This document shows positions 27,176 to 46,055 of a stretch of 64,000 bases of DNA, piece by piece (positions within the stretch are counted from its first letter, which is position 1; each line of letters opens with the position of its first letter). The notes beneath the pieces are model-generated. The model ran no database searches. It saw only the letters and a program-made list of their open reading frames with translations, and had not been told where the DNA came from. The translations under genes were made by a program, and so were the position numbers. The stretch is from Acidimicrobiia bacterium. Its GTDB lineage: Bacteria; Actinomycetota; Acidimicrobiia; Acidimicrobiales; JANYDT01. The stretch is taken from contig JANNBN010000057.1 of the NCBI GenBank assembly GCA_031385545.1, positions 3,055-67,054 of the forward strand, given 5' to 3'.

Positions 27176-30127
27176 CTACGGGACGTAACCGGTGACGTCG
27201 ACTACCAAATGGGTCGTAGCCGAGGTATACAGGCAGACCTTTCCGCTTGTCCCCAGCCGAGCCACAACAGCGTTCGAGATGGTCTGTCCGGCGGTGAAAT
27301 TGTTATTTGAAGCGAGTGGCAAGGTTGACCCGCACGGATACACCGTGACGAATCCGGCAGTGCCGGGCTGGGTGACGGCAATGTTGAGCGTGACGGCATA
27401 GGCATTTGCCGGGATGCCTGCACGGCCGCCCGCGGTCAGCTCGAGACTCGAACCGCTGTCCAGGGGTCCTGCCCCGGCTTGCTGGTTGTCGAACGTGCTT
27501 GCGCCCTGCCGAGTGTCGAGGAGGCGGGCAGGAAGCATCGCAATGTAGGGCGAGGTCGCCGGAAAATAGCCGCTGGCATCGACAACGATGTGAGCTGCCG
27601 CGGAGGTAAAGATGCAGACCTTTCCGTCTGTACCCAAGCGTGCAGAAACCGAGTTGGCGATGGTCTGGCCCGCTGTGAAATTCAGATTTGAGGCCACTGG
27701 TAACGGGGATCCGCAGGGGAACACCGTCAAAAAACCGGCTGCCGTCGGTTCGGTGATTGCAACACTGATCGAGGCGGCTTTCGCTGTCATTGGAATACCG
27801 CCGCGCCCACCAATGGTGAGTTCGATGGTGGAACCGGCCGACCGTCCACCGATACCGGCGAATAGGTTGTCGATCGTGAATTGACCGACCCGAGTATCCA
27901 TGAGGCGTGCCGGGCTTGTTGATGTGAAGAAAGAAGGTGCCCTGGAATAGGCCGACGCATCAACAACGACGTGGGTTCCCTTGGACACGTAGATACACGC
28001 CCTGCCGCCTGCACCGACGCCTGCGGGCACCATTCCGGAAAGAGTCGCGCCTTGCACAAAATTGACGTTCGAAGACGTCGGGCGGGCTGTGCCACAGGGG
28101 AATACGGTGACGAACCCGGCACCCGTGGCTTGGGTGATGGCTACATTCAGCCAAACCGTGGTTGCGTCAGCGGGGATGCCGGCTCGGCCGGTCAATTGCA
28201 GTTCTGTGGTCGTTCCATCTCCCAGTATTCCAATTCCTGCCATCTGGCTGTCGATGGTCTGCTGGCCGGCTCGTGAATCAAGAAGTCGGGCCGGGCTGAA
28301 GGCGACGAACGTGGGCAAGTTGTTCGGCGGTGTTGTCGTCGTGGTGGAGGTCGTGGAGGTCGTGGAGGTCGTGGAGGTCGTGGAGGTCGTGGAGGTCGTG
28401 GTAGTCGAAGTCGTTGTTGGAGTTGTTGAACTGGTGGCCGTGGTTGTACCGGTGGTTAGTTCGAGCAGGGTGATAGAGGCGGGAGCGAAGGTGCGGGTGT
28501 AGCTGGAGGCGCCTCCGCGGTTGGTGGTAACGCCAGGTGCGTTGGAGAAGTCGTCAGCGGGGGCGACGAGGCCGTTGTAGGTGGGGAGGGTGTCGTTGAT
28601 CGTGGTCCCGGCGAACGTATCGGCATACTCGCTGACGATGCCCTTGCCATCGATGCTGATGGCTGCAGTCTTGGGGCTGTTCGTCTTGTTGATGACCATC
28701 AAGGTGGTGTTGCCGTTCTTCTGGCCGGCGTAGATGGAAAGATCACTGCTGGCGTTGAATGAGGTGTCGACGTCCTTGATGCTTGTTCCGAATCGCTTCC
28801 AAAGAGCCATGGCGTAGTACGTAGGGAAACGGTAGGCGTCTTCGTAGTTGTTGTCCTTGAAGCCCATCAGCCCGAACTCATTACCGAACCAGGAGTCATA
28901 GTACATCGTGAATTGGTTTGATCCGATGAATCGATCCTTCAAAGCCATCTGGCCAATGGAGTCGCCGACCATCATGGCGTTCATAATCTGATTGAGACGC
29001 ATTCCTTCTCGTTCTTGCCAGCCCTCGGAAGTTAGGCCGAATTCCGACATCAAGACCGGTGTCTTGCTCGTAATCCCGGCGATTGATTCGAGTACCGATA
29101 GCTGCTGGTCGAGTTGCGCCAGTTTGACTTCAGGGAAGGCAAGGATGGTTGCGTTCCCGGAGGGGGTGTTTGGTGGCGGATCGTACTGGTAGTAGGTATG
29201 GATGATCAAGAAGTCGATGTCTGTTCCAGCCCGGTTGAACAGCGGCTGCATCCACGGGTTCGACGCGTTGAGTTCACCCTGGGTGCCTGGGATGCCAACC
29301 TTGATGGTCGGGTCGATGGTCTTGAGGAACGTCTTCGTTTCGGAGTACCCGTTGCGACGGGTTGCCCCTGAACCGATGCCTTCGTAGAACTCGACCGAAC
29401 TGCAGGTCCAGACCGTCTCCCATCCGAACGCGAGACACCCGGGAGACCCTTTGCCGCCCATGGTTTCGTTGCCGAATTCCCAGGTCTTGATGTTCATCGG
29501 AGAGGTCACACCTCCGTTCACCCTCTTCTGTGCCCAAAAGCCGACCGTCTTCCAGTCGATACCGAGTTGGTCGACACCAATCACCCGCGTGTCGTCGACG
29601 GTGCCGTTCGAGAATGCAACCAGAGCGGCGTTCTCCTTCATTGTGGCATTGGCATTAAGCGTCATGACCAGTTGCTCCGTACCCACCTGATTCGCCCATT
29701 TGAAGAACTCAGAGGTACGAATGAGCGGGTCGGTGGTGAGGTTACGTTTTGCTGCAGGAAAGCAGGGCGTACCGTAGGTGACTGCGCCGGGAGTGGTTGA
29801 CAACTCACAGGACGCCCATCCCCAGTCCTGGGCCGCGACCCCGCCCGGAAACCGCATGAAATCGGTTGCCTGGCTGCCGCGGCTCGCCAACTGGGTGTTC
29901 AGGAACGACGGATGCACGAAGAACGACGCGTTCGTGCCCCACTTCATCGGGCCGAAATCACGGAAGGGCCGCCCGTCGACGCGAATGGTGCCGTCAGCGA
30001 CGCTCTGAGCGGACCCGACGCCGCTTCCGACTATCGACCCAACCGCGGCAGCAGCCGCCAGCAATGACACCATTGTTCGTCTCCGTCGAGCGAACGGGTG
30101 TGTGATCGACGAGATCCTCGGTGTCAT
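27176..30127 (-). CDS. Secreted clan GH-A-like glycoside hydrolase (GH51/GH79-like by motif), Thr/Ser linker and three 127-aa C-terminal repeats
   Basis: 983 aa with a signal peptide. MRFPGG, the WEFGNE acid/base-type motif, the LMSEFG nucleophile-type motif and a beta-sandwich-like LMVINKTN segment are present. A TTSTTS linker and three repeats follow. GAGGAG RBS. Confidence 0.8.
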   Translation of the reverse strand: MTPRISSITHPFARRRRTMVSLLAAAAAVGSIVGSGVGSAQSVADGTIRVDGRPFRDFGPMKWGTNASFFVHPSFLNTQLASRGSQATDFMRFPGGVAAQDWGWASCELSTTPGAVTYGTPCFPAAKRNLTTDPLIRTSEFFKWANQVGTEQLVMTLNANATMKENAALVAFSNGTVDDTRVIGVDQLGIDWKTVGFWAQKRVNGGVTSPMNIKTWEFGNETMGGKGSPGCLAFGWETVWTCSSVEFYEGIGSGATRRNGYSETKTFLKTIDPTIKVGIPGTQGELNASNPWMQPLFNRAGTDIDFLIIHTYYQYDPPPNTPSGNATILAFPEVKLAQLDQQLSVLESIAGITSKTPVLMSEFGLTSEGWQEREGMRLNQIMNAMMVGDSIGQMALKDRFIGSNQFTMYYDSWFGNEFGLMGFKDNNYEDAYRFPTYYAMALWKRFGTSIKDVDTSFNASSDLSIYAGQKNGNTTLMVINKTNSPKTAAISIDGKGIVSEYADTFAGTTINDTLPTYNGLVAPADDFSNAPGVTTNRGGASSYTRTFAPASITLLELTTGTTTATSSTTPTTTSTTTTSTTSTTSTTSTTSTTSTTTTTPPNNLPTFVAFSPARLLDSRAGQQTIDSQMAGIGILGDGTTTELQLTGRAGIPADATTVWLNVAITQATGAGFVTVFPCGTARPTSSNVNFVQGATLSGMVPAGVGAGGRACIYVSKGTHVVVDASAYSRAPSFFTSTSPARLMDTRVGQFTIDNLFAGIGGRSAGSTIELTIGGRGGIPMTAKAASISVAITEPTAAGFLTVFPCGSPLPVASNLNFTAGQTIANSVSARLGTDGKVCIFTSAAAHIVVDASGYFPATSPYIAMLPARLLDTRQGASTFDNQQAGAGPLDSGSSLELTAGGRAGIPANAYAVTLNIAVTQPGTAGFVTVYPCGSTLPLASNNNFTAGQTISNAVVARLGTSGKVCLYTSATTHLVVDVTGYVP
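28344..28397 (-). repeat. 6 perfect copies of a 9-bp tandem repeat (Thr/Ser linker)
   Basis: GTGGAGGTC x6 on the plus strand, encoding (TST)n on the minus strand. Confidence 0.95.
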
Positions 30128-30414: not shown

Positions 30415-30903
30415 GTGGTACCGCTCAGAAGATTGTGGCTGCGGATGCGCGCCTTCCGCCGACTGCCACGTCGTTCGCAAGCTGTCTTCTTCCCTGCCCT
30501 CGTTCTCAATCCGTTGTTCCGGCTCGTTGCCAAGCGTCGGGGCATCAAGTCGGCAACTGCATTGGCTCGACGCCTCGCGGGTCACGCCGTGCAGCCGCCG
30601 CAGCCGGTCGACCCGACCGGAACGCACACGTCGCTCCCGATCGCACGTCAGGTGGTTCTGGGGGTACGCGCAGCGGCTGGCGCGCTCCCGGTTGAGCTTG
30701 TCTGCCTACCACGGTCGCTGACCGCCTGGACCATCCTCAATCGGATGGGAATTTCGGCCACCCTGCGGATCGGTATGGATGCCTCGACCGATCACAAGAC
30801 AGCACACGCATGGATCGATGTTCTGGGTGAACCCATCGGCGAGGCGCCTGGCCAGATCCAGCAGATGGCGGAGTTCTCCGAACCGATACTCGGGCGAACA
30901 TGA
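30415..30903 (+). CDS. Lasso peptide biosynthesis B2 protein (transglutaminase-like leader peptidase)
   Basis: 162 aa. LVCLPRSLTAWTILNRMGISATLRIGMD....AHAWIDVLGEPIG carries the Cys and His (CLxRSL ... AHAW) arrangement of McjB-C-terminal/B2 proteins. The stop overlaps the next gene (ATGA). Confidence 0.85.
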   Translation: MVPLRRLWLRMRAFRRLPRRSQAVFFPALVLNPLFRLVAKRRGIKSATALARRLAGHAVQPPQPVDPTGTHTSLPIARQVVLGVRAAAGALPVELVCLPRSLTAWTILNRMGISATLRIGMDASTDHKTAHAWIDVLGEPIGEAPGQIQQMAEFSEPILGRT

Positions 30904-31859
30904 CTGAGGTTGCATCGCGGCGCGTCCTCCTGCACGGGTTGGTTGTCGAGACCAACATGCCCGTTGCAGCGCGTCCGTCGACTGCGTCTCCGCAGGTTTG
31001 TTGCAGTACCGACAACGGTGTGTTGCGGTCCGACAACTCAAATTCAGGAACTGTGCTTGCGCAGGACTTGGTCGCTGGTGTTGTGACAATGCGGGTGATG
31101 ACGAACGGCTTCGGGTATTTCATCGAATGGCCCGGCTTCATGCGCGCGACGTTGGATCGAGCGTCGAGGAGTGCAGCGTTCGAACTTGGCTTCAGTGTCA
31201 GTGATCCTCGGTCCGCTGCGGTTGCGCCGGTGATGCTTTCCCCGGCGGTCGGGGTTGTGTCAATGCTCAACGGTGCAATCGTGCTGCACACATCCGCTGT
31301 TGTCGTGCGGGGCCGGGCGGTGCTGTTGCTCGCGGATCGAGGCGGTGGAAAGTCTTCCATCGCGGCCCTCCTTGGGAGTGCCGGGGTTCCGCTCCTTGCT
31401 GAGGACGTCTGTGCGCTCACAATCGATTCCCTCGGCACCCCCGTCGCCCACTCAGGGATTCATGAACTTCGCCTCCGCACCACCACACCGTGGTTGGCCG
31501 ATCTTCACGGTCTCGTGCGATCGGCGCCGCATTTTGATGGCCGCATCGTTGTCCGGCCGCCCGTAGCGTCTCAGGCCGTTGTTCCTGTATCTGCGATCCT
31601 GGTCGTGCGACTTTCCCACTCCGCCAAGCGAGTGACTATGGAACGCATTCCGGTGGCCCAATCCGTACGTGTACTGATGACTTCGCAGCGATGTTCGCCG
31701 ATTCTGACCAACTCCCTCGCTCTGTCGATGTTCAACAGTGCCGTCGATTGTGTTGACCGGGCCGTCACCTCGATTCTCAATGTGCCGTGGGCAGAACACA
31801 GACGCAACCGCGAACTGGGCCTTGAGCTGGCTGAAGCGATCTCGGCAAGCATCCCGTGA
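30900..31859 (+). CDS. HPr-kinase-like lasso-cluster kinase 1
   Basis: 319 aa. LHTSAVVVRGRAVLLLADRGGGKSSIAALLGSAGVPLLAEDVCAL matches the HprK C-domain core (H..v....g.avLl.G.sG.GKS...L...G..L.aDD). Confidence 0.8.
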   Translation: MTEVASRRVLLHGLVVETNMPVAARPSTASPQVCCSTDNGVLRSDNSNSGTVLAQDLVAGVVTMRVMTNGFGYFIEWPGFMRATLDRASRSAAFELGFSVSDPRSAAVAPVMLSPAVGVVSMLNGAIVLHTSAVVVRGRAVLLLADRGGGKSSIAALLGSAGVPLLAEDVCALTIDSLGTPVAHSGIHELRLRTTTPWLADLHGLVRSAPHFDGRIVVRPPVASQAVVPVSAILVVRLSHSAKRVTMERIPVAQSVRVLMTSQRCSPILTNSLALSMFNSAVDCVDRAVTSILNVPWAEHRRNRELGLELAEAISASIP

Positions 31860-31870
31860 TTTCGCCTCTG

Positions 31871-32164
31871 CTACCGATGTCGGCCTTCAGCTTTGGACGA
31901 CGACGCCATTCTCCTGCTGGCCAGATCCACTAAGAAGCGGTGAATGTCGAGACGCGCAATCTCCTCGCTGACGTCGAAGCGTTCGGTGACGACACGTACC
32001 AAATGATCGAGGTTCGCGCCCGGTGTGAGTGCCTCCCAGATCACCACCCCGGGCCCATCGATCGATACCGACGTTGAGGTGCGCAAGTCGAAGACGATGA
32101 CGGCGTCGTCGACCTTCTGCCAGGTAATCGTGTCAGTCTGCAGTCTCCAGACCTCTTCGAGCAT
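31871..32164 (-). CDS. PqqD-family protein (lasso B1 / RiPP recognition element)
   Basis: 97 aa. VIVFDLRTSTSVSIDGPGVVIWEALTPGANLDHLVRVVTERFDVSEEIARLDIHRFLVDLASRRM is the PqqD/RRE pattern. Confidence 0.85.
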   Translation of the reverse strand: MLEEVWRLQTDTITWQKVDDAVIVFDLRTSTSVSIDGPGVVIWEALTPGANLDHLVRVVTERFDVSEEIARLDIHRFLVDLASRRMASSSKAEGRHR

Positions 32165-32202: not shown

Positions 32203-33414
32203 ATGCCGCCGACTTTGTACTCAAATCCCAAGATCCTTTCTCCTGACGCTGCAACGATTCGGTGGAACTTTCCCCTGTTCAGTGAGCTTGACTCTTTCGA
32301 CGAACTGGCTTGCCCTTCACCGGTCGATCCCGATACCCGTGCACGCAACAAACAGCGAGGCTCGCTGTTCGAGGTGTTGATCGACCTGATTCAGCAGCGT
32401 CTCGACGACACTCCCGTTTACGTTCAGTTCTCAGGCGGATGCGATTCGTCTCTGGTGCTGTCTGCCGCCGTTGTCGCGTGCCGCCGATGTGATCATGATG
32501 CACCCATACCAATCTCGTTTCGGTACCCGCTGCTACCAGAGACCGACGAAAATGACTTCCAAGCTCTCGTTCTCGATTTTCTGAAACTGCCTCAGGGTCG
32601 GATCGAATCAATAACGTCCGAGTTTGATCTTGTGGGTCCAGCGGCGCAGAGGGGCCTTCGGGAGTTGGGGCTCGTGTGGCCGGCTCCGGTGGTCGCCTGT
32701 GCAGACGTGTTCCGGTCCCTGCCGCCGGGTTTGGTGCTTTCCGGCGAGGGCGGGGACGAGGTGATGGGACCTCGTCGCATAGCCGGCGTGTTCCGGGCGG
32801 CCGAGATGCTCAGACAGGGCCGTCTGAAATCGACGGCGGGCAACTTGGCAGTCGCGCTCGGCCCGTCGGCTTTGCGCACGAGAGCAATGATGCGCAGTGG
32901 CGGAATGGTTGGAGAATGGATAGCGGCCAACGAAGCCGAACGGTTCGTTTCGAGGATAGGCGAAACATACGGAAGCGAACCGTTGCTGCCCAGCCGTTAC
33001 GCGAAATACTACGCGCGCCTATCGAGTTCGGCGTTGGCTTTTCATCAGATCACCGCCATCATGAACTGGGCTGGGCAGCAGTACTGTGCGCCGATCATGG
33101 AGCACGCCTTCGTAGTCGGGGTGAACGACCTCACACCGGCATCGGACTTACGGAACCGTTACCGGGTCCTCGGACGCCATTTCAGTGAACACCTGCCCCC
33201 TGAGATCGTGAAACGAACAACCAAGCGGTACATGCAAGCGGTGTACTTCAACGAGCACGCACGCGAATTTGCCCGCCATTGGGACGGGCAAATTGACGAC
33301 GAAGCTGTGGATGGACGCCTGTTGCGGAACCATTGGGTGACTGCCGAACGAGATGGGGTCTGGTCGCAGACCTTTCTGTTGTTGCAGTCGGCGTGGCTTG
33401 CTTCAGCGGCCTAA
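32203..33414 (+). CDS. Asparagine-synthetase-like lasso cyclase (C protein), synthetase domain only
   Basis: 403 aa. PP-loop VYVQFSGGCDSSLVLSAA and LVLSGEGGDEVMG. An in-frame TAA lies at 32125-32127 with no start codon before 32203, so the ORF cannot be longer. Confidence 0.8.
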   Translation: MPPTLYSNPKILSPDAATIRWNFPLFSELDSFDELACPSPVDPDTRARNKQRGSLFEVLIDLIQQRLDDTPVYVQFSGGCDSSLVLSAAVVACRRCDHDAPIPISFRYPLLPETDENDFQALVLDFLKLPQGRIESITSEFDLVGPAAQRGLRELGLVWPAPVVACADVFRSLPPGLVLSGEGGDEVMGPRRIAGVFRAAEMLRQGRLKSTAGNLAVALGPSALRTRAMMRSGGMVGEWIAANEAERFVSRIGETYGSEPLLPSRYAKYYARLSSSALAFHQITAIMNWAGQQYCAPIMEHAFVVGVNDLTPASDLRNRYRVLGRHFSEHLPPEIVKRTTKRYMQAVYFNEHAREFARHWDGQIDDEAVDGRLLRNHWVTAERDGVWSQTFLLLQSAWLASAA

Positions 33415-33417
33415 GGC

Positions 33418-33552
33418 TCAGGAACTCGTGAGCGGCTGACCGGCTGGAATGGCCTGATCTGCGAAAGCCTTCGGGCTTGCTGCAAGCGTGGTTTCCGTCA
33501 CTGAGCCGATCTCCTGAACGGCAGGGGCGGTGTAAGGCTGTTTGGTTGACAT
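33418..33552 (-). CDS. Lasso peptide precursor (A peptide), 44 aa
   Basis: My translation is MSTKQPYTAPAVQEIGSVTETTLAASPKAFADQAIPAGQPLTSS. The leader fits YxxPxLx3Gx5Tx (Y7, P10, V12, G16, T22). The predicted core AASPKAFADQAIPAGQPLTSS has a single acidic residue at position 9 and a C-terminal SS. It is below the 60-aa ORF-track cutoff. Confidence 0.75.
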   Translation of the reverse strand: MSTKQPYTAPAVQEIGSVTETTLAASPKAFADQAIPAGQPLTSS

Positions 33553-33614
33553 ACCGGTATTCTGGACGACAGCGCGGGAAGCAAGTAATCGTCAGTTTCC
33601 CGTACGGGAGTAGT

Positions 33615-34652
33615 GTGGTGCACCTGAAACAGTTGAACTGGCTCCACGGTCTCCGGGTCCAGGCCGACCTGAACCTTCCCTGTGTTCCCGCCGAGAGCGG
33701 GGGCCCTGACCTGGTTCTGTCCACCGGGGTCGACAGTTCCGGCCTCGCGAAATCGAAGCTCCGCTCTCGGGCGCCATCATCAGTCTCCGACCGAGTGGCA
33801 TTGACCGGAGTCGACAACGGGGAGGTCGATGGCCACGAGGTGGTGTTCCTTGACCAGGCTATGTCAATCCGGCGCGCTGTTGGTGCGCCTCGCGTCACAG
33901 TTCGGTACCCGGCCGTTGGGCTGCGATTCAGCATCGACAGCTCAGGAACTCCGGCGCTGGTGGTTGCCTCGGCAGACCACGGCGAGTGGCTGCCGTGGAT
34001 CACGGTACTCGTTCAAGGAGCTGTCGTTGCTGTGGCGGTCGCCATGTCCGGGAGGGCCGCGTTCCATGCCAACACCGTCGACGTAGCTGGGCAGGGCATT
34101 CTCGTCGGTGGGGCGTCCGGTGCAGGAAAGACGGTCGCGACGGCGCTCTTGGTCCTTGCCGGACACACGCTCGTCGCCGATGACGTCAGTGTTGTCGATC
34201 CGGACCTGCCGGTCCGGCCGGGCCTGCTTGAACTGCGGGTCCGCACCTGGGAAAACCCTCTTGGCCAGTTGCTGGTCGACGAGCTGGTCGGCCTGCCCGG
34301 TACCAGCCAACAAGAAACAGTTGACTTCCGGGTCGCAGTCCGGCTCGGGACGGACCCTCACCCCGATGGCGTTCTACCCGCTCGCATGGTCTTGCCAACG
34401 TTCGACGATGAAACGAAACACCCGAGACTTGAGACCATTCGTGGCGCTGAGGCAGTCAAAGCCCTTCTTCCGACGATGCGCCTCGTGGGCTGGAAGGACC
34501 CCCACCGCCAACGCGCAGACTTCGGGCATTGTGCAGACTTGGCCCTCCGGGTCCCGATTCAACGACTTTTCCTCCCGCGCCTCGGCGGCGATGAACCAGC
34601 GCTGCTTCGAGACACTGCAGCTGAGCTGTCCGACCTGATCAGAAACTGTTAG
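33615..34652 (+). CDS. HPr-kinase-like lasso-cluster kinase 2
   Basis: FHANTVDVAGQGILVGGASGAGKTVATALLVLAGHTLVADDVSVV is a very good HprK C-domain core. The start was taken at GTG 33615 (GGGAG 5 nt upstream) inside ORF 33477-34652. Confidence 0.8.
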   Translation: MVHLKQLNWLHGLRVQADLNLPCVPAESGGPDLVLSTGVDSSGLAKSKLRSRAPSSVSDRVALTGVDNGEVDGHEVVFLDQAMSIRRAVGAPRVTVRYPAVGLRFSIDSSGTPALVVASADHGEWLPWITVLVQGAVVAVAVAMSGRAAFHANTVDVAGQGILVGGASGAGKTVATALLVLAGHTLVADDVSVVDPDLPVRPGLLELRVRTWENPLGQLLVDELVGLPGTSQQETVDFRVAVRLGTDPHPDGVLPARMVLPTFDDETKHPRLETIRGAEAVKALLPTMRLVGWKDPHRQRADFGHCADLALRVPIQRLFLPRLGGDEPALLRDTAAELSDLIRNC

Positions 34653-34710: not shown

Positions 34711-35406
34711 CTACTCGGCGCCAGGTAACTCCCGAAAGCGCTGGAGCGCTTGCTCGCGGTTACGGGCTCCGAGTTTGCGATAGAGAATCCGTTGCAACGA
34801 TTCGACGGTCTTCGGAGTCACCCCAAGGTCGAGGGCGATTGACTTGTTCCCCGCGCCAGACTTCATCAACTGGATCAACTCTCGCTCCCGCGCGGTGATC
34901 CGGGTCTCCCGGTGGTTCGCAGGGAATGGCGACGTGCCGACCGCCCGCAAGAGCTGCTGTGCGTTCCAACCCGCCGCACCTTCTGCCAAAGCGGCTACTG
35001 CTGTTTGCAGCGCACGTATACCATCGTCTGGGTCAACGAACCACATCACTCCGCGGCTGAGGGCAATGGACAGGTCGTGGGCCCGCTGCGTCGGTGTGGT
35101 GACCAATACGACGGGTGTCCCGGATCGCACGAGCTGTAACGCCGGTCCAGCTCCCACGCCTCTGTCGTCGAGGACAACGGTAATGGTCTCGCCGATGGGT
35201 TGACGCTTCGTCAGTGTGGAGGTCGACCCCGAACTCCGGCGCGGCCCGTTCGGGACAATGACGGATCCGATCTTTTCCAAGTTGGCGCGTCGGAGAAGTG
35301 CCGCCACCCCCAAAGCCACTAAAGGGTTGTCGGCAACGACCACCAATGTGATCGCTGCGGCGGGTGCGGGCGCAGCATCAGCTGCCACAGAAGTCAGGCG
35401 GATCAT
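34711..35406 (-). CDS. LuxR-family regulator with atypical receiver-like N-terminal domain
   Basis: 231 aa. The C-terminal ITARERELIQLMKSGAGNKSIALDLGVTPKTVESLQRILYRKLG is the HTH. The N-terminal VVVADNPLV...VVLDD...VVLVTT is receiver-like but carries an insertion and lacks the conserved Lys region. Confidence 0.75.
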   Translation of the reverse strand: MIRLTSVAADAAPAPAAAITLVVVADNPLVALGVAALLRRANLEKIGSVIVPNGPRRSSGSTSTLTKRQPIGETITVVLDDRGVGAGPALQLVRSGTPVVLVTTPTQRAHDLSIALSRGVMWFVDPDDGIRALQTAVAALAEGAAGWNAQQLLRAVGTSPFPANHRETRITARERELIQLMKSGAGNKSIALDLGVTPKTVESLQRILYRKLGARNREQALQRFRELPGAE

Positions 35407-35969
35407 CTACCTTTGGGGATCCCGTCAGGACCGCGGTCTTCGTTTTCCAGCAGGCCGGCCGATCGTGCGATCGCGACAGCTTGACCAGCCGTATGGACGG
35501 CCCACTTCTTGTACAGCTTGCGCCGGTGCGTTGACACGGTGCTGTTGCTGACTCCGATTTCGATGGCGATCTCGGCAGTTGTCCTGCCTTCGGCAATTCT
35601 TCGCAACACGGCAAGCTCCCGGTTCGTCGCGGGCATCACCTTCACTGACGGCGCTCGCCAAGGGTGTTTCAACCGCAGGGCAGCTCCGCTCCGCGGAACG
35701 CTTGGACCTTTCCGGGACGCAAGTTCGCCAGTGAGCCAGACAAGGGCATCCCGCGTCGGCGCAAGCTCGAGACTGAGAAGCGCGTCGGTTGAGCGCTGTG
35801 ACGGGGTGGCGGAATGATTCGAAACCCGGACAACTTGAACGATTGACTTGTCGGAGGTCCAATCTTGGTCCAGGGATTCGATCACAACAACCGACGCATC
35901 GGCCTCGCGCAGCACAGCGCTGATTGCCTCGCACCACAGTGCAGTGGACTCGACCACGGCTACTTTCAC
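35403..35969 (-). CDS. LuxR-family regulator with pseudo-receiver-like N-terminus
   Basis: The C-terminal TNRELAVLRRIAEGRTTAEIAIEIGVSNSTVSTHRRKLYKK is the HTH. The start was chosen at GTG 35969 (VKVAVVES...); the ORF extends to 36011. ATGA overlap with the downstream regulator. Confidence 0.7.
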   Translation of the reverse strand: MKVAVVESTALWCEAISAVLREADASVVVIESLDQDWTSDKSIVQVVRVSNHSATPSQRSTDALLSLELAPTRDALVWLTGELASRKGPSVPRSGAALRLKHPWRAPSVKVMPATNRELAVLRRIAEGRTTAEIAIEIGVSNSTVSTHRRKLYKKWAVHTAGQAVAIARSAGLLENEDRGPDGIPKGR

Positions 35970-36039
35970 TTCACAAGTGTTGCAGTTGCGAACGGACCGG
36001 TGCGATTGCATTCGTCAGTCGTCCGGGTACATTGAGACC

Positions 36040-37173
36040 GTGGAAGGTCCGATTGGTGCGTTGGTCGATCTTGCAATCGGACGTGCAACAGACCTGCACC
36101 ATCTTGCGAATTTCGGGCCGCGGCTGTTGGACTGCGCGCTCGAGCACCGCCTTGTCCCCATGCTCTGGGAGACGCTGGCAACGGTGCCAGGACTGGATCG
36201 CCAACGTGTAGCGGCGATCGACCTTCAAGCCCGACACCGGTATCGGATCGTGGAGGAAGAACTCGTCCGCGTCAGCGAGGTAGCGGCCGCCGTCGGCGTG
36301 CAGATCGGTGTCGTCAAAGGGGTGGTCAATTCCGAACGATGGTTCGCATCAGACCCTTCGGTTCGACCGTGTTCAGACATCGACCTGTTCCTCGACCCGA
36401 CCGATCCTGGAGGCACTGACCGCTTGTTGGCTGCGCTCGAACCGGCGAGCCCGCTGTGTGGCCACGCGGGGCATCTGATGGCTCGTGGCGTGCTGCCCGA
36501 CATCCCGATCACCAGCGGACGGTTGTTGGTCGAGATCCACGCGAACCCGATGACGCTGCAACTCAGCAGGAGCCGAATCAACGCGCTGTGGAATTCGACG
36601 GTGGGGACCACCACTCGCGCCGGTGGCTCGGTCCGGTGCCTTGACACCACAACGGCACTCGTCCATGCGCTGATCAATTCGGCCAAGGACAACCACGCGT
36701 TCCTGTTGCAGGTGCTTGAAGTAGGTCGTGCGCTGCACGATCCACAAGTCGACTGGGGTCGCTTCGAGCAGATTGTTCGTGACAACCGCTGGGACACCGT
36801 CATCGACGATGCCCTCGGCTACGTGTGCGCGTTGTTGGACCAACCCGGCCCGCCCGTCGACCTCAAGCCAGAAGCTGCATCCGTGTGGGCCATGCACCGA
36901 CTTGCTCCAGTCGCCGATCGGCTTGGGGGGCGAGCCTCGTGGCGTCGAGCCCAGCGTTTCTGCAAGCTGGACCTCGTCGTGCCGGGAACACGGGTCGCAA
37001 CGGCGAAAGGAATCGTCACCCGCACGTTTTCACCCGATGAATACATCTCCGCTTTCGCTCCTGATCTCCGTGGTCCTTACCCTCTGCGCGCTGCCAAGTT
37101 CTGGGTTCGTCGCCAGCAGTACGTGAAGGGCACGCGGTCTTCGCTGGCCGGCCCGCTCCCGAAGCAAGGTTGA
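36040..37173 (+). CDS. Nucleotidyltransferase-fold protein (PF14907/NTP_transf_5-like), lasso-cluster associated
   Basis: VVKGVVNSERWFASDPSVRPCSDIDLFLDP...LLVEIHANPM fits the pattern of the uncharacterised nucleotidyltransferase family. The start was taken at GTG 36040 inside ORF 35848-37173, because the 5' part overlaps the divergent regulator. Confidence 0.65.
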   Translation: MEGPIGALVDLAIGRATDLHHLANFGPRLLDCALEHRLVPMLWETLATVPGLDRQRVAAIDLQARHRYRIVEEELVRVSEVAAAVGVQIGVVKGVVNSERWFASDPSVRPCSDIDLFLDPTDPGGTDRLLAALEPASPLCGHAGHLMARGVLPDIPITSGRLLVEIHANPMTLQLSRSRINALWNSTVGTTTRAGGSVRCLDTTTALVHALINSAKDNHAFLLQVLEVGRALHDPQVDWGRFEQIVRDNRWDTVIDDALGYVCALLDQPGPPVDLKPEAASVWAMHRLAPVADRLGGRASWRRAQRFCKLDLVVPGTRVATAKGIVTRTFSPDEYISAFAPDLRGPYPLRAAKFWVRRQQYVKGTRSSLAGPLPKQG

Positions 37174-39014
37174 TTCGGTTGAGGGGCGTGCTCCGGCTGT
37201 TCGCAGGGCTGTCGACCAACCTTCGACAGACCTATCGATTGGTCTGGGACGGTGCCCGATCACAGGTGACCATCGGTCTTGCGCTCGACGTTGTGCTGAC
37301 CGTCGCCACGATCGGCCAACTGGCCTTGGTGAAGCGGTTGCTCTCGCAATTGCGGGTCGGCGCTCAGCAAGGCGAGTTAGCGCAGCCGTTGCTCCTCACG
37401 ATCGCCGTCAGTGGAGTCCTCGCTGCCACGGTGGCGGCGATCGGTGCGGTGCAGATGTTCATTCGGCCACTGGCAGTTGAGATGCTCACTCGCCACACGT
37501 ACGCCAAGGTGCTCGAACGACTGCGCACGGCTCCCCTCGAGGACTTCGACGAGCCCACGTTCCATGACCGTCTTGAACGGCTTTCGAAGGACGGGGTCGA
37601 GCGTCCGGCCGAACTGGTGTGGGCGGCGTCCGGGCTGCTTGCCAGCCTGATCGGCATCATTGGCATCGGCGCGTTCGTGACGTCGATCCTTCCGGAGATC
37701 ATGCCGATGGTGATCGTCGGGGCGATACCGCTGCTCGTCGCCAGCCGTGTCGACGCCCACGCCTACTACCAATACATCCAGGGTGTGGGATCACTTCGCC
37801 GCAGAACCCAATACCTGCGAGACGTGCTCACCGAACGCAAGATGGCGCCCGAACTTCTTGGTTACGGGCTTCGGCCCAGGCTGGAGGAGTGGCACGAAGC
37901 TTTTCAGCAACAGCGGATCGACCGGCTTGCGACGATGGTCAAGTCCCGCTCCATCCGCTCCATCTACACGGCGATTGCAACCATCATCGTCACGATTGCA
38001 GCCATGTCGCTCATCGCGTGGAGGGCTACACATGGTGACCTCACCATCGACGAAGCCGTCGCTGTGGTGTTGGGCGTCCAGCAGTTGACGGGAAGGCTTT
38101 CGACCCTTCGGTCCGCCCTGTCTGTCGTGCAACAGAATCGACTGTTCCTCTCGGACCTGTTCAGCTTCCTCAACGACGTCGCCCCGCCGAGCACCGACCA
38201 GCGCCCGTCTGTCAGCGAATCGGGCACGGAGCCGGTGCCCGTCGGGCTGGGCAGCGACATCCAGGTCGACTCCGTGGTCTTTCGCTACCCGGCGCAGACC
38301 CGAAATGCTGTCGACACCATCGATGTGCACATTCCGAAGGGACAGGTCGTCGCGCTGGTCGGAGAGAACGGGTCAGGCAAGACGACGCTCGCCAAAATCA
38401 TTGCGGGGCTGTACTCGCCGACGTCGGGAACTGTGCGGGTCGGTGGAGTCGACCTGGCCGGGTTGCAGGGCTCGGCCCGCACCCGCCACGCCGTGACCGT
38501 ATTCCAGGACTTTGCTCGGTTCGCCCTCAGCGCCCACGACAACATCGCGTTGGGTGACACGGCGCGGATGAACGACCCGGCACGAGTGCAGCAGTCGATC
38601 GATGCGGCCGGTCTGGGTGGAGTCATCGATGCGCTTCCCAACGGCTTGGACACCATCCTGGCGTCGCAGTTCGAGGGCGGGGTTGATGTGTCATCGGGGC
38701 AGTGGCAGCGGTTCGCACTCGCCCGTGCGTTCTACCGTGATGCCCCGGTCCTGCTCTTGGACGAACCCACCGCTGCACTCGACGCTCGGTCCGAGTACCT
38801 GCTGTTCGAACGAGTCCGCGAAATCGCCCGAGGTCGCACCGTCATTCTGATCTCGCACCGTCTGGCCTCAGTTCGCGACGTCGACCGGATCATCGTCATG
38901 CGCACCGGACGCATCGTGGAGTCAGGAACGCACCAGGAACTGATCGCGTCTGGCGGGCTGTACGCAGAACTGACGGACCTGCAGGAACGAACGAGCCTCG
39001 CCAACCTGGACTGA
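37170..39014 (+). CDS. ABC exporter, fused permease and ATPase (McjD-like lasso D protein candidate)
   Basis: 614 aa. The N-terminal half has 6 TM helices. Walker A is GENGSGKTTL, the signature is SSGQWQR and Walker B is LLLDEPTAALD. TTGA overlap with the upstream gene (alternative starts at 37179 and 37188). Confidence 0.9.
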   Translation: MIRLRGVLRLFAGLSTNLRQTYRLVWDGARSQVTIGLALDVVLTVATIGQLALVKRLLSQLRVGAQQGELAQPLLLTIAVSGVLAATVAAIGAVQMFIRPLAVEMLTRHTYAKVLERLRTAPLEDFDEPTFHDRLERLSKDGVERPAELVWAASGLLASLIGIIGIGAFVTSILPEIMPMVIVGAIPLLVASRVDAHAYYQYIQGVGSLRRRTQYLRDVLTERKMAPELLGYGLRPRLEEWHEAFQQQRIDRLATMVKSRSIRSIYTAIATIIVTIAAMSLIAWRATHGDLTIDEAVAVVLGVQQLTGRLSTLRSALSVVQQNRLFLSDLFSFLNDVAPPSTDQRPSVSESGTEPVPVGLGSDIQVDSVVFRYPAQTRNAVDTIDVHIPKGQVVALVGENGSGKTTLAKIIAGLYSPTSGTVRVGGVDLAGLQGSARTRHAVTVFQDFARFALSAHDNIALGDTARMNDPARVQQSIDAAGLGGVIDALPNGLDTILASQFEGGVDVSSGQWQRFALARAFYRDAPVLLLDEPTAALDARSEYLLFERVREIARGRTVILISHRLASVRDVDRIIVMRTGRIVESGTHQELIASGGLYAELTDLQERTSLANLD

Positions 39015-39034: not shown

Positions 39035-39478
39035 CTAGCGCGCGGTTGAGTCAGCTGTTGCGCGGTAGTTGGTGGAAGCGTCGCCTGCCTGTGGGCGGTC
39101 TTCGTAGCGCTCGCCCGCGAGCACAGCGCGCATTGCCTTGCGGACGCGGATCGGGTCGAGCGGCTTGATGAGCCATCCGTCGGCGTCGCATTTCTGGGCC
39201 AGATACGTGTCGGCGTTGCGGTCGAGCAGCAACAGCACGGGCACTTCGGGGGAACGGCCGCCAGAGGCCTCGAGGCGTAGGTCGTAGGTGACCGCAATCG
39301 CCCCCATGTCCGAGATCTGCATGTCGAGGATGACAAGGTCCGGCTCTTCGGTGGCCACGATATCTCGGACGGCCCGGCCGGCGGTAACGCTGCGGATGAC
39401 GGTATCGCCACCCGGGATGGCGGCGCGGATCTCGTCGTGCACCCAGGGGGCGTCGCTACAGATCAAGACGGTGGGCAT
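39035..39478 (-). CDS. Stand-alone response-regulator receiver domain protein
   Basis: 147 aa. VLICSDAP, DLVILDMQISDMG (phospho-acceptor Asp), VLLLLDR and GWLIKPLD (conserved Lys). Confidence 0.85.
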   Translation of the reverse strand: MPTVLICSDAPWVHDEIRAAIPGGDTVIRSVTAGRAVRDIVATEEPDLVILDMQISDMGAIAVTYDLRLEASGGRSPEVPVLLLLDRNADTYLAQKCDADGWLIKPLDPIRVRKAMRAVLAGERYEDRPQAGDASTNYRATADSTAR

Positions 39479-39489
39479 GGCTGTTGAGA

Positions 39490-40875
39490 CTAGTGCCCGG
39501 CAGGTGCAGGACCAGCGGCACCGGTGGCCGTGGCGGCTACGAACCCCGGTTTGAACAGCAGCCAGAACAAGATGCCGGCGGCCAAGGTGAGTCCGGCGCC
39601 GGCGACGAGCGGCGTGTTCGAGCTCACGCTCGACGCGACGTATCCCACGAGGACCGATGCCGGAACCTGGGCGAGGCTGGACACGCTGGAGTAGATACCC
39701 ATCGCCTCGCCTTGGCGGCCCATCTCGGCGGAGCGCGACATGAGCGAGGTGAGGTTGGCCATGGACAGACCCTGGAAGAGCGCCAGGACCGGGATGAACA
39801 GGTACAGGATGGCGGACCGGGTGATGAGGCAGTACGCCGTGAGTGCCACTACTTGGCCGAAGATCGAGAAGCGGAGCACCTTGTAGTCAGCCAGCTTCTT
39901 TGCCACCACGCCGACCAAGGCGCCTTGGGTGATGGCGATGAACACGCCAACGATGGCGAAGTAGTCACCGGTCTTGGATTGGGAGAAACCGAATTTGTTC
40001 TTGACGTATACCCCGAAGAACGTGGTGAAGAACGTGAACCCACAGACCCAGAAGAACGCTGTGGTCAGGACGGGGCGAAGCCGTGGACTGGAGAAGCCCT
40101 CCTGCACGTTGCGGACGGCCTTTGACAGTTCGAGCTTTCCGCTGCGTTTGTGGACCAGCGTCTCGGGAAGCCTGAAGAACACCGAGGCCGCGTTGAGCGC
40201 CGCCAAGAGCGAAGCGAACAGGAACGGTGTTGTCGCTCCGAACCACGAGGGCGTGTCGAACAGGCCGTAGAAGCTGGTGTCCGGAGCGCTGAGCCGACCG
40301 CCGATGTAGGGCCCGAGGATGAACCCGAGACCGAACGCAGCACCGATGAGACCGAAGTTCTTGGCTCGGTTCTCGTTGGTCGAGACGTCGCCGATTGCAG
40401 CTTGGGCAACGGCCAGGTTGCCACCGGTGATGCCGTCGATGGCTCGGCCAAGGAACAACAACGGGATGGACTTGGCGCTGATGCCGGCGGCGAAGATCAG
40501 GTAGCCGACAGCTGTTCCGGCGATAGAGATTGCGAGGATGGGCCGGCGGCCCATGCGGTCCGAAAGCTGCCCGAGAATCGGTGCCGCAAGGAAGATGCAG
40601 AGGGGATACACCGCTTGGAGCCAACCAAGCATGATGAGCCCGGTCGTTGGAGACCAATCCAACGGGGTGACGCGGAACGCGGCCCCGGGCCGTGGATCGA
40701 TGAGGAGCGGGAAGACGGGGATGAGAATGGAGAAACCAACGAGATCGATGAAGATCGTGAAGAACAACGGCAACAGGGCCTTTCGCTGGCGGGGTTGCGT
40801 TCCGCTGCCAGCAGTGCCGGGGCTATCGGTTGGAAAGACTTTCGGAAGGACTTCCGGAGGTTCGGAGTTCGGCAC
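39490..40875 (-). CDS. MFS transporter
   Basis: 461 aa with about 12 hydrophobic spans. MFS motif A is GQLSDRMGRRPIL. Confidence 0.85.
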   Translation of the reverse strand: MPNSEPPEVLPKVFPTDSPGTAGSGTQPRQRKALLPLFFTIFIDLVGFSILIPVFPLLIDPRPGAAFRVTPLDWSPTTGLIMLGWLQAVYPLCIFLAAPILGQLSDRMGRRPILAISIAGTAVGYLIFAAGISAKSIPLLFLGRAIDGITGGNLAVAQAAIGDVSTNENRAKNFGLIGAAFGLGFILGPYIGGRLSAPDTSFYGLFDTPSWFGATTPFLFASLLAALNAASVFFRLPETLVHKRSGKLELSKAVRNVQEGFSSPRLRPVLTTAFFWVCGFTFFTTFFGVYVKNKFGFSQSKTGDYFAIVGVFIAITQGALVGVVAKKLADYKVLRFSIFGQVVALTAYCLITRSAILYLFIPVLALFQGLSMANLTSLMSRSAEMGRQGEAMGIYSSVSSLAQVPASVLVGYVASSVSSNTPLVAGAGLTLAAGILFWLLFKPGFVAATATGAAGPAPAGH

Positions 40876-40917
40876 TCGATCACCTTAACGGGAGGGGTGA
40901 GACAACCTTTTGGCCGG

Positions 40918-42003
40918 TCACCACTGCGACGCCAGCCTGCTGAGCGCTGCGCCTTCGTCCAAGCGGGGGTCGAACTGCTCGACCAAAGCGACGATGGGTG
41001 TTGAGAGCGATGATCGGAGCGTGTCTGCTGCAGCTTCGTCGCGCACGCGACGGGCCTGGTGGTCGGCGAGTATCTCGTTGACGGCGTTCGCCTGCGCAGA
41101 CTTTCCGGGAGACGAGTTCGGAAGACCTTCGTAGAACGGTTCAGCCCGATTCACAATGGCACCGTGGACGGTGATGCCGGTCTGCCCGATCTCCCCGGCG
41201 AAATCCAACGCAGCGCGGAGCGGCTCGTGTTCCGATGTCGTGATCAGGATCCACGCTGTGCGTTGATCCGTGAGGATTTCGAGCGCGTCTGCCGCCCGCT
41301 CACGAAAGCCTGACTCCAGCCCGTCGAAGAGCCGGAAGAACTCAATCGCATCGGACACGACAGCGCCGCCGATGACCTGCGTCAGTGGCTTCAGCACGGC
41401 TTGGGCTGCACTTGAAACCAGACGGAACGCGCCTTTCCCCGGAGCGATGACCAGACGAAACAGAGTGTGGTCGAGGAACCGGACCAAGCGACGCGGTGCG
41501 GTGACGAAGTCCAGCGCGTTTGCGGCGGGCGGGGTGTCGACCACCACCACGTCGAACCGCTCATCTGCGACCAGTTGGTGAACCTTCTCCGCGGCCATGT
41601 ACTCCTGGGTTCCCGACAGCGTGCCGGAGATGTTCGCATAGAGCCGGTTGGCCAGAATGGCGGCCGCCTGGCCTGGCGCTGCGTGCGTGCGGATGACATC
41701 GTCGAAGGTCGCTTTGGTGTCGAGCATGCAAGCCCACAGCTCACCGGCGAGCGGCTCAGCGGGTTGCGAACCGTTGACGGTCAAAGAGACGCGGCGAGGT
41801 GTGTTGTCGAGCGCGACGACACCCAGCGTTTCTGCGAGACGCTTCGCCGGATCAATCGTGACCACCACGCAGCGCCTGCCGCGTTGCGCCTGCGACAAGG
41901 CGATTGCCGACGCGAGCGTGGTCTTGCCGACGCCGCCTGTCCCTGCGGTCACGATGACCCGGGCCGACGCAAGTACCGAAGCCAGGTCACCTTCTGGGAT
42001 CAT
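40918..42003 (-). CDS. ArsA-family ATPase (second gene of a pair)
   Basis: VIVTAGTGGVGKTTLASAIAL P-loop. The start at ATG 42003 overlaps the upstream stop (ATGA); ORF-track start is 42102. Confidence 0.85.
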   Translation of the reverse strand: MIPEGDLASVLASARVIVTAGTGGVGKTTLASAIALSQAQRGRRCVVVTIDPAKRLAETLGVVALDNTPRRVSLTVNGSQPAEPLAGELWACMLDTKATFDDVIRTHAAPGQAAAILANRLYANISGTLSGTQEYMAAEKVHQLVADERFDVVVVDTPPAANALDFVTAPRRLVRFLDHTLFRLVIAPGKGAFRLVSSAAQAVLKPLTQVIGGAVVSDAIEFFRLFDGLESGFRERAADALEILTDQRTAWILITTSEHEPLRAALDFAGEIGQTGITVHGAIVNRAEPFYEGLPNSSPGKSAQANAVNEILADHQARRVRDEAAADTLRSSLSTPIVALVEQFDPRLDEGAALSRLASQW

Positions 42004-42932
42004 CCGATCTCCTCGGCGGTGATTTGCTGGACGATTTGTTGGAGGGCTTCCTGGAGGGCTTCCTGGAGGCGAGTACGCCGCTGCACCGCTGACGGGTCCC
42101 ACACCGCAGGCAGTTCGACCAACGGGAGCGGAAGCTGAGCCCGGAGACGTTGAATCAACTCGGTCTGCGAGGACTCTCGTGTTGCCCGGTCATGTATGAG
42201 TCGTTTTAGCGGGTCGCTCAACACGCTCTGTTTCAGCGTTCCGGCGAGGCGACTCTCGACCCGGTTCACGATCAGTGGACCAAGCCGCACGTGCACGCGG
42301 TCCTCGAGCGCAAATGCTGTTTCGACCGTCTCCGAGACGGGCGTCTGTTCGGGAAGGGTCACCAGGACCACCTGTGTTATGGCAGGGTCCGCCAGCGTTG
42401 CTGCTACCTCGTCCGCCTGCTGGCGGATTGCGCCGACTGAAACCGATTCGCGCAGACCTGCGGCGGTATGCAACATCGTGATGGCGTGCCCGGAAGCCGG
42501 TCCATCGACAACCACCAAGTCATGGTCACCTTGGTTGACAAGCGCTTTGATCCTCCCGAGCACGAGGATGTCGCGAATGCCGGGCACGGCGGTTGCGATC
42601 ATGTCCAGCGCGCCGGAAGCACGCAGGCGGTCCGCAACCCGCCCGAGCCGCTTGTCGGAGAGCCAGTCGGCCAGTGCCCGGTCCGCTAAGACCATCTGAG
42701 CCTCGAGCCGATCGGCGACAACCACACGCGACTCGCTGAACGGCTCGGCGCCGAACAGGGCGGCAAGCGACGCCGGAGACTCCAGTCCGACCAGCAATGT
42801 GCGCAGTCCGGATGCCGCCGCTGCGGCCGCGGTGACTGCTGCCACAGTGGTTTTTCCCACTCCGCCCTTGCCGGCGACGATGAGGAGTCTGGAGTCACGG
42901 AAGAATGGGGGTCGCATGCGATGTGACCACAC
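42000..42932 (-). CDS. ArsA-family ATPase (first gene of a pair)
   Basis: 310 aa. LIVAGKGGVGKTTVAAVTA P-loop. The paired arrangement resembles the mycobacterial Rv3679/Rv3680-type loci. Confidence 0.85.
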   Translation of the reverse strand: MWSHRMRPPFFRDSRLLIVAGKGGVGKTTVAAVTAAAAAASGLRTLLVGLESPASLAALFGAEPFSESRVVVADRLEAQMVLADRALADWLSDKRLGRVADRLRASGALDMIATAVPGIRDILVLGRIKALVNQGDHDLVVVDGPASGHAITMLHTAAGLRESVSVGAIRQQADEVAATLADPAITQVVLVTLPEQTPVSETVETAFALEDRVHVRLGPLIVNRVESRLAGTLKQSVLSDPLKRLIHDRATRESSQTELIQRLRAQLPLPLVELPAVWDPSAVQRRTRLQEALQEALQQIVQQITAEEIG

Positions 42933-42990
42933 CTTCTCAACCTCCGATCAGCGCTCCCGTTCTCAGGACCGGACCGATCGATTAATCCGC

Positions 42991-45928: not shown

Positions 45929-46055
45929 CCTGCAACCGTACCGCCGCCGTACACGCCCTCACGGGACGCAGACGGACTCTCGAAACTTGCCCCTTGCCTT
46001 TGTGACCTACGACACGTACGTTTGCATTCTGTACAGAACCTTGGGGGTCAAGGAA

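Follow-up and report, generated by a model that had tools for sequence, protein, structure and literature searches.

Which peptide do the enzymes of a lasso-type biosynthetic cluster act on when no precursor gene is annotated beside them? The question is raised by a stretch of 64,000 nucleotides (nt) from an Acidimicrobiia bacterium (contig JANNBN010000057.1, about 60% G+C), analysed here at its full length and referred to as the window, in which an earlier reading made from the letters of the DNA, the sequence-only reading, had singled out an unannotated open reading frame (ORF) of 44 codons at positions 33418–33552 on the minus strand. We are highly confident that this ORF is the precursor gene, A, of the surrounding cluster, and we consider it very likely that it encodes the precursor of a class-II-type lasso peptide. 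The argument is carried by the conservation of the ORF in its own reading frame, by a set of orthologues with a fixed leader and a variable core, and by the enzymes encoded around it.

A 44-codon gene with a lasso-type leader and core

Gene A (33418–33552, minus strand; 44 codons plus a stop) translates to MSTKQPYTAPAVQEIGSVTETTLAASPKAFADQAIPAGQPLTSS, and the start, stop and translation are exactly those claimed by the sequence-only reading. An in-frame stop codon lies upstream, and the ATG at 33552 is the first start codon after it. The gene occupies a 200-nt gap, as had been supposed, between the stop codon of C (33414), which encodes the putative cyclase, and the inferred start of K2 (33615), which encodes an HprK-like kinase. 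It is convergent with C, the two stop codons being 3 nt apart, and divergent from K2, a 62-nt interval separating the two starts. Its assignment draws on the translation, codon bias, orthologues, a family profile and the NF033521 model, each described below.

The leader, residues 1–23 (MSTKQPYTAPAVQEIGSVTETTL; 33484–33552, minus strand), carries Y7, P10, V12, G16 and T22 with the spacing read earlier, T22 being position −2 relative to the predicted cleavage site after Leu23. The resulting core, residues 24–44 (AASPKAFADQAIPAGQPLTSS; 33421–33483, minus strand), starts with Ala1, has Asp9 (codon GAT, 33457–33459) as its sole acidic residue and terminates in Thr-Ser-Ser; cleavage after Leu23 together with an Ala1–Asp9 linkage is, in our judgement, also very likely. 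Three features of a class II lasso precursor are found here: a short ORF beside B1, B2 and C, with everything inside 3.2 kb; a leader of the form YxxPx[LVIFA]...G...T at −2, represented by Y7, P10, V12, G16 and T22; and a core with Gly, Ala, Ser or Cys at residue 1 and Asp or Glu at positions 7–9, represented by Ala1 and Asp9. YxxPx[L/V/I/F/A] is the lasso leader motif given in the literature (PMC13381572).

The curated leader model NF033521 (lasso_leader_L3) matches residues 7–23 of the peptide over model positions 1–17 with 18.7 bits (E 1.2e-3), against a cut-off of 19 bits that is an annotation threshold and not a biochemical criterion. The orthologue in the most closely related locus, L001, also falls below the cut-off (16.9 bits), whereas those of L002 and L003 score 24.3–29.2 bits, and the orthologues and wider family overall reach 19.3–33 bits. 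The two low scores are probably explained by a T-T-L where (E/D)-L-T-L is the norm. So narrow a miss is a plausible reason why the precursor gene could go unannotated; the L001 orthologue was missed by the gene caller, and the L002 orthologue was called by the Joint Genome Institute (JGI) as a 43-residue gene. A search of the 44-residue peptide against a collection of 5.8 billion proteins returned no match, not even the peptide itself, and is uninformative because the query is near the limit of the word index.

The reading frame is a conserved gene

Spurious long ORFs are common at about 60% G+C, two of them are listed across the same DNA (33248–34003, minus strand, 251 residues; 33477–34652, plus strand, from a TTG, 391 residues), and no Shine–Dalgarno sequence precedes the precursor ATG, all of which would suit a chance ORF in G+C-rich intergenic DNA or a piece of one of the longer frames. 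The substitution pattern argues otherwise. Relative to L001, whose C protein is the closest to that of the window, 25 of the 135 nt differ, 22 of them at codon position 3, and the codon changes comprise 19 synonymous and 3 non-synonymous ones; the precursor ORF is under purifying selection in its own reading frame. As the third-position bias fits the frame of the precursor only, both overlapping ORFs are excluded, the 391-residue one also by the start sites of its homologues, given that K2 orthologues begin downstream of the peptide gene. With orthologues that persist, invariant functional residues included, down to 48% identity in C, and with a profile match specific to this ORF, the chance-ORF explanation is effectively refuted, and we give it next to no weight.

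The sequence-only reading had named conservation beside homologous clusters as a test of its proposal, and an orthologue, none of them frameshifted, accompanies every related locus. Ten orthologous precursor genes occur across seven loci, the window included, whose C proteins are 48–100% identical, and all ten are convergent after C. Identity of C to that of the window is 74% in L001, 73% in L084, 59% in L085, 56% in L002, 49% in L003, and 49% and 48% in L086, a locus with two C genes. There is one precursor copy each in L001, L002, L084 and L085, two in L003 (9166–9300 and 9475–9606, minus strand) and three in L086 (2876–3043, 3160–3375 and 6822–6965, minus strand). In the alignment of all ten, Met1, Tyr7, Pro10, Glu14, Gly16, Thr22 and Asp32, which is Asp9 of the core, are invariant, so that four of the five leader residues noted from the window's sequence (Y7, P10, G16 and T22) and its proposed ring-closing residue turn out to be fixed. 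The remainder of the core varies more than the leader does, and a fixed leader joined to a variable core is the pattern expected of a ribosomally synthesised, post-translationally modified peptide (RiPP). Serine is the C-terminal residue in nine of the ten.

Another peptide in the window acting as the substrate had been the second test put forward. Using 87 leader-plus-ring segments, all of them from loci that do not belong to this subclade, we built a profile and searched the window's 1393 six-frame segments with it; the precursor ORF was the sole match (E 6.3e-6; next best 0.86). Because the regular expression that selected the training set came from the previously noted motif, the search falls short of full independence from the hypothesis. 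A second stretch that matches the regular expression, at 45925–46047, has no plausible core and no profile score, and the window holds no other candidate.

The surrounding biosynthetic cluster

The enzymes expected of a lasso pathway lie on both sides of gene A. B2 (30415–30903, plus strand) is a transglutaminase-like leader peptidase (PF13471, 60.6 bits; NF033537, lasso_biosyn_B2, 62.7 bits against a cut-off of 33) that is 70% identical to its L003 orthologue. B1 (31871–32164, minus strand) is a PqqD-type RiPP recognition element (RRE; PF05402, 36.4 bits) with weak matches to lasso PqqD chaperone models. C (32203–33414, plus strand) is an asparagine-synthase-like putative macrolactam synthetase of 403 residues, with PF00733 over residues 61–375 and an SGGCDSS PP-loop motif.

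Two HprK-like proteins are encoded. K2 (33615–34652, plus strand) is an HprK-like kinase with the pattern His...SGAGKT...DD (PF07475, 36.4 bits; HPr kinase in the PDB, E 1.7e-5); its GTG start at 33615 was inferred by alignment with the called genes of L001–L003, and the listed ORF, starting from TTG 33477, would overlap A. K1 (30900–31859, plus strand) is a divergent HprK-like P-loop protein with His...GGGKS...ED (TIGR04352, E 2.7e-4), for which a search of PDB sequences gave spurious matches only. The two are 30% identical over 151 residues, and each forms its own orthologous line in L001–L003 with its motifs kept. Both retain His...GxGK[ST]...[DE]D, ending in DD in K2 and in ED in K1; the His/Lys/Asp-Asp motif was shown by mutagenesis to matter for lasso kinases (PMC10368454). 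In most members of the wider family there is only one kinase.

Downstream of K2, N (35848–37173, plus strand) is a PsmN-like NTP_transf_5 protein (PF14907, 68.8 bits). Its homology to L001 starts at ORF residue 62, and the true start is probably near 35977–36030. D (37170–39014, plus strand) is an MsbA-like ATP-binding cassette (ABC) exporter, a permease fused to an ATPase (PF00005; TIGR02203 and related models). Two tandem LuxR/GerE-family regulators, both with PF00196, lie between K2 and D at 34711–35406 and 35403–36011 on the minus strand, and the pair is kept in L001, L002, L003, L085 and L086.

Is the product a threaded lasso?

Canonical lasso cyclases are two-domain proteins of about 510–650 residues that resemble AsnB and β-lactam synthetase and include an N-terminal domain. 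This architecture is absent from C, which aligns only to positions 239–514 of TIGR01536, the synthetase half of AsnB models, and has no equivalent of the AsnB N-terminal domain. Searches of C returned no match at E ≤ 0.01 to the lasso-cyclase models of NCBIfam and none to PDB sequences. Lacking a sequence match in the PDB, we turned to a fold search, in which an AlphaFold (AF2) model of C with a predicted local distance difference test (pLDDT) score of 94 found β-lactam synthetase, asparagine synthetase and TsnB9 as its best PDB matches; as modelled, C has the AsnB/β-lactam-synthetase fold. There is no structure of a lasso cyclase with which to compare it (PMC13352647).

These properties of C bear on the main rival explanation, namely that the ORF is a RiPP precursor whose product is not stably threaded, being either an unthreaded branched-cyclic macrolactam or a peptide defined by (poly)phosphorylation and glycosylation, with C acting in a non-canonical way. 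A cyclase that lacks the N-terminal domain and matches no lasso-cyclase model would suit such a product, as would the tail of the peptide, QAIPAGQPLTSS, in which no aromatic or other large residue could act as a plug; bulky aromatics are the usual steric locks (PMC13352647). Furthermore, HprK, an RRE, a nucleoside triphosphate (NTP)-transferase and a transporter resembling MsbA are likewise the core components of the non-lasso LPP family (PMC13381572). Yet every locus has kept both B2, which scores above the NF033537 cut-off, and a C homologue, the invariant Asp9 and the small residue 1 make sense only with ring formation, and a Pfam scan of ten cluster ORFs found no SpI-type peptidase domain. 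We therefore judge a non-threaded product quite unlikely and retain the lasso peptide as the preferred reading.

Several observations nevertheless weigh against the lasso reading or parts of it. Besides the atypical length and missing domain of the cyclase, and its failure to match any curated lasso-cyclase model, the peptide itself falls 0.3 bits short of the NF033521 cut-off; A runs antisense in the interval from C to K2, and B1 is on the strand opposite C, both of which are unusual in comparison with the wider family. One L003 paralogue ends in ...GSR, that is, in Ser-Arg. Ring, threading and modifications are all predicted, and stable threading is not assured for a tail that offers no bulky plug residue; the peptide may need its predicted C-terminal modification to stay threaded, or may have no stable threaded form at all.

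Expression signals upstream of the precursor gene

A −10-like hexamer, CAGAAT (33559–33564, minus strand), stands 6 nt before the ATG, and a hexamer of the CA(G/A)A(A/C)T type (CAGAAT, CAGACT, GAAACT or CAAACT) is found 6–7 nt before the start in nine of the ten subclade precursors, L086c being the one that differs. Further upstream, a perfect palindrome, TCCCGTACGGGA (33598–33609), lies in the 62-nt gap between A and K2 and is a candidate operator. Its exact sequence occurs once in the window and again in L001 (9397–9408), L002 (9393–9404), L084 (1768–1779) and L085 (2284–2295), with CCCnTAnGGG palindrome variants upstream of the L003 and L086 precursors, both tandem L003 copies included. In nine of the ten precursor genes the palindrome ends 44–46 nt upstream of the start codon; the third L086 precursor has none. 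The conserved spacing of hexamer and palindrome supports the assigned start codon.

Together with the missing Shine–Dalgarno sequence, this arrangement suggests that the precursor mRNA is leaderless and transcribed from an activator-dependent promoter, and the adjacent LuxR-type proteins are the obvious candidate regulators at the putative operator. A scan for a consensus sigma-70 promoter found no site, which counts against this part of the proposal; the leaderless start and the operator function are drawn from sequence patterns. With two mismatches allowed, the window holds 18 matches to the palindrome against 19.4 expected, and there is no excess that would indicate a regulon of further sites.

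The palindrome in the window overlaps the likely K2 ribosome-binding site. A scan for terminator-like hairpins found only one, at 33355–33374 on the plus strand, inside the C coding region. Any plus-strand transcript that reads through from C to K2 would run antisense to the mRNA of the precursor, which would itself extend antisense into the 3′ end of C, and mutual transcriptional interference is thus possible.

A wider family of clusters with short cyclases

When genomes were scanned with aligned C homologues, 342 matches were confirmed, of which 80 were kept (loci L004–L083). Nearly all of the 80 are from Actinomycetota, including Acidimicrobiia metagenome-assembled genomes (MAGs) as well as Nocardioides, Isoptericola, Tessaracoccus, Georgenia, Terrabacter and Jiangella, with a single MAG labelled as Gemmatimonadetes; the closest genomes are Acidimicrobiia MAGs. 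The C proteins of the family are 236–420 residues long and are labelled in the source as nothing more than 'asparagine synthase-related protein'. A precursor with the same leader signature is present in nearly all family loci, where Asp occupies core position 9 in 74 of 92 cores and Gly or Ala is the first residue in 69 of 92. The gene order of Nocardioides halotolerans, B1-A-C-B2-K-unknown-ABC, indicates that clusters with a short C are genuine lasso-type clusters. In most family loci A is upstream of C on the same strand; what sets the window's subclade apart is a precursor gene placed antisense between C and K2, together with a second kinase and the two tandem LuxR genes.

The sequence-only reading had linked the terminal serine to HprK-like kinases. 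Across the family, 46 of the 63 precursors in loci with an HprK-like kinase end in Ser, compared with 5 of 12 in kinase-free loci, in line with that link. The association is weak, however (Fisher p 0.045, not corrected for phylogeny), and it too tempers the proposal that the terminal serine is the target.

Two recurrent sequence features were seen in family cores. The motif D9-x-x-[ILF]-P-A-G-x-[PS], which the window core carries, recurs in L058, L079, L018, L053 and L010, loci of distant Acidimicrobiales whose C proteins are 28–35% identical, and its recurrence hints at a conserved loop feature or a target-binding element. Long poly-Gly tails ending in ...GGGGGGGFGS, unusual for a lasso tail, are found in L031, L033, L040, L064 and L067, from Nocardioides and related bacteria. 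Literature searches, within a limited library, found no account of lasso peptides of Acidimicrobiia, of phosphorylated lasso peptides of Nocardioides or of such short cyclases, and nothing specific on the domain architecture of the cyclase.

Relation to characterised systems

The closest known systems in function are pseudomycoidin and paeninodin, the latter being the comparison that had been drawn from the window's sequence. Paeninodin (pade cluster, Paenibacillus dendritiformis C454), with the core AGPGTSTPDAFQPDPDEDVHYDS, likewise has Ala1, Asp9, a nine-residue Ala1–Asp9 ring and a C-terminal Ser (PMC12427821). It also shares the split of B into B1 and B2, and its HprK homologue PadeK modifies the C-terminal Ser of the linear precursor, the site predicted for the window. 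Unlike the window cluster, with its N gene, the pade cluster has no NTP-transferase. Paeninodin RREs favour Trp-containing leaders and the group is described as confined to Bacillota (PMC13381572), whereas the window leader is a canonical YxxP leader with Tyr7 and its host belongs to the Acidimicrobiia.

Pseudomycoidin (psm cluster, Bacillus pseudomycoides DSM 12442) has the core AGPGKRLVDQVFEDEDEQGALHHS, again with Ala1, Asp9 and a C-terminal Ser (PMC12427821), and a cluster of A, C, an HprK-like K, B1, B2, the NTP-transferase N and the ABC exporter D. As in the window, its tail has no effective plug, and a phospho-hexose has been proposed as the lock (PMC6993621). The differences are that pseudomycoidin comes from Bacillota and has one kinase, whereas the window is from Actinomycetota and has two; that the window has a single-domain cyclase of 403 residues, a precursor gene lying antisense between C and K2, and a leader of the YxxP type; that the cores are unrelated save at positions 1 and 9 and the C terminus; and that the LuxR regulators and the candidate palindromic operator are specific to the window's subclade. 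Of the features of the HprK-tailored group, the window has the kinase motif, in K2 and in K1, and the terminal Ser; the Trp-type leader and the restriction to Bacillota are not found. The window system works like paeninodin and pseudomycoidin, outside that Bacillota clade.

Two further systems share several of the same components. Bsf (BsfK, Bradymonas sediminis) and LPP (LppK, Paenibacillus alginolyticus) have an HprK-like kinase, an RRE, an NTP-transferase and an ABC transporter, and their kinase motif, His...GxxGxGKS...DD, is common to the window kinases (PMC10368454, PMC13381572). In both, the RRE accelerates phosphorylation of the linear precursor (PMC10368454, PMC13381572). BsfA differs in having Ile at −2 and an Asp terminus, and LPP in having an SpI-like peptidase and no cyclase; the presence of B2 and C, and the lack of an SpI-type peptidase in the ten ORFs scanned, rule out membership of the LPP family.

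BsfK and LppK phosphorylate Ser3 of their own cores (PMC10368454, PMC13381572). The window core also has a Ser3, and two distinct, conserved HprK-like paralogues are available in K1 and K2, which together leave room for a lasso precursor whose phosphosite is not, or not only, the C-terminal Ser, one kinase acting instead on core Ser3, Thr19 or Ser20. Ser3, however, is not kept among the orthologues, whose core positions 1–3 read ASQ, ASL, AQN, AAA and ATN, while a Ser at or close to the C terminus is; most loci of the family, furthermore, have only one kinase and yet a C-terminal Ser. Such a shift of phosphosite is, we think, unlikely, and the C-terminal Ser is the site adopted below.

A proposed route to the product

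Gene A would be transcribed from a weak promoter of its own into a probably leaderless mRNA, under the control of the palindrome 45 nt upstream, where the two LuxR-type regulators probably act. The leader would be bound by the PqqD-type B1 via Tyr7, Pro10 and Val12; in the paeninodin system, the leader is bound by PadeB1 with an affinity in the nanomolar range, and cleavage by B2 requires PadeB1 (PMC5067487). Guided by B1, a kinase would then phosphorylate Ser44, by analogy with PadeK, ThcoK and SyanK, which act before the lasso forms and transfer phosphate to the hydroxyl of the C-terminal Ser while the precursor is still linear (PMC9266682, PMC8498205). We regard it as probable that the C-terminal Ser is phosphorylated, and are less sure of the glycosylation and stable threading considered next.

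B2 would cut after Leu23, guided by Thr22 at −2, and C would adenylate Asp9 and couple it to the amine of Ala1, giving a nine-residue macrolactam with a loop and tail of 12 residues. The NTP_transf_5 protein may attach a hexose to the phospho-Ser, as PsmN, which is NTP-transferase-like, decorates the phospho-Ser of pseudomycoidin with one or two hexoses (PMC6993621), before the ABC transporter D would export the product. Given that the tail has no bulky aromatic residue, a phospho or phospho-hexose group may serve as the steric lock, the role suggested by the authors of the pseudomycoidin study for the bulky phospho-hexose (PMC6993621).

Chromosomal neighbourhood

On the side of B2, 27176–30127 (minus strand) encodes a predicted secreted protein of 983 residues with no Pfam match, in which a Thr/Ser-rich linker (TTTATSSTTPTTTSTTTTSTTSTT...) is followed by three repeats of about 110 residues ending in ...VVDASGY; the equivalent position in L001 holds a 966-residue gene, also with no Pfam match. 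One flank of the cluster (39035–44295), common to L001–L003, encodes a response-regulator receiver protein, a major facilitator superfamily (MFS) transporter, a pair of ArsA-like ATPases and NfeD, and the other flank in L001 and L002 has asd. This shared neighbourhood fits vertical inheritance within the Acidimicrobiia lineage better than recent transfer.

Discussion

The claims made from the window's sequence about the extent of the ORF, its leader and core residues, its intergenic position and its resemblance to paeninodin have all stood up to comparison with related loci. The precursor itself is conventional, a lasso precursor of an established type. What makes the cluster a variant are its single-domain cyclase, its two kinases, the antisense precursor gene with its candidate operator and the actinobacterial host. 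A bolder view, which we offer tentatively and consider doubtful as a whole, is that the window represents an uncharacterised, Actinomycetota-centred lasso branch, in which a single-domain cyclase of about 400 residues would close a nine-residue ring on a tail free of bulky plugs, and C-terminal phospho or phospho-glycosyl groups would lock the thread afterwards. In the window's subclade, two kinases and an NTP-transferase would install these groups, and the precursor would be expressed from a leaderless, LuxR-operated promoter antisense to a possible C–K2 transcript.

The gene is also a concrete case of how a genuine precursor can fall just short of a curated cut-off for annotation. With its recovery, the substrate, cleavage site and ring residue are assigned for a lasso cluster of the poorly studied and largely uncultured Acidimicrobiia, which makes the product predictable and the cluster expressible. 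The large family of unusually short cyclases to which C belongs offers possible minimal scaffolds for lasso engineering. More broadly, lasso pathways tailored by kinases and NTP-transferases, so far characterised only in Bacillota and Proteobacteria, have common counterparts in Actinomycetota.

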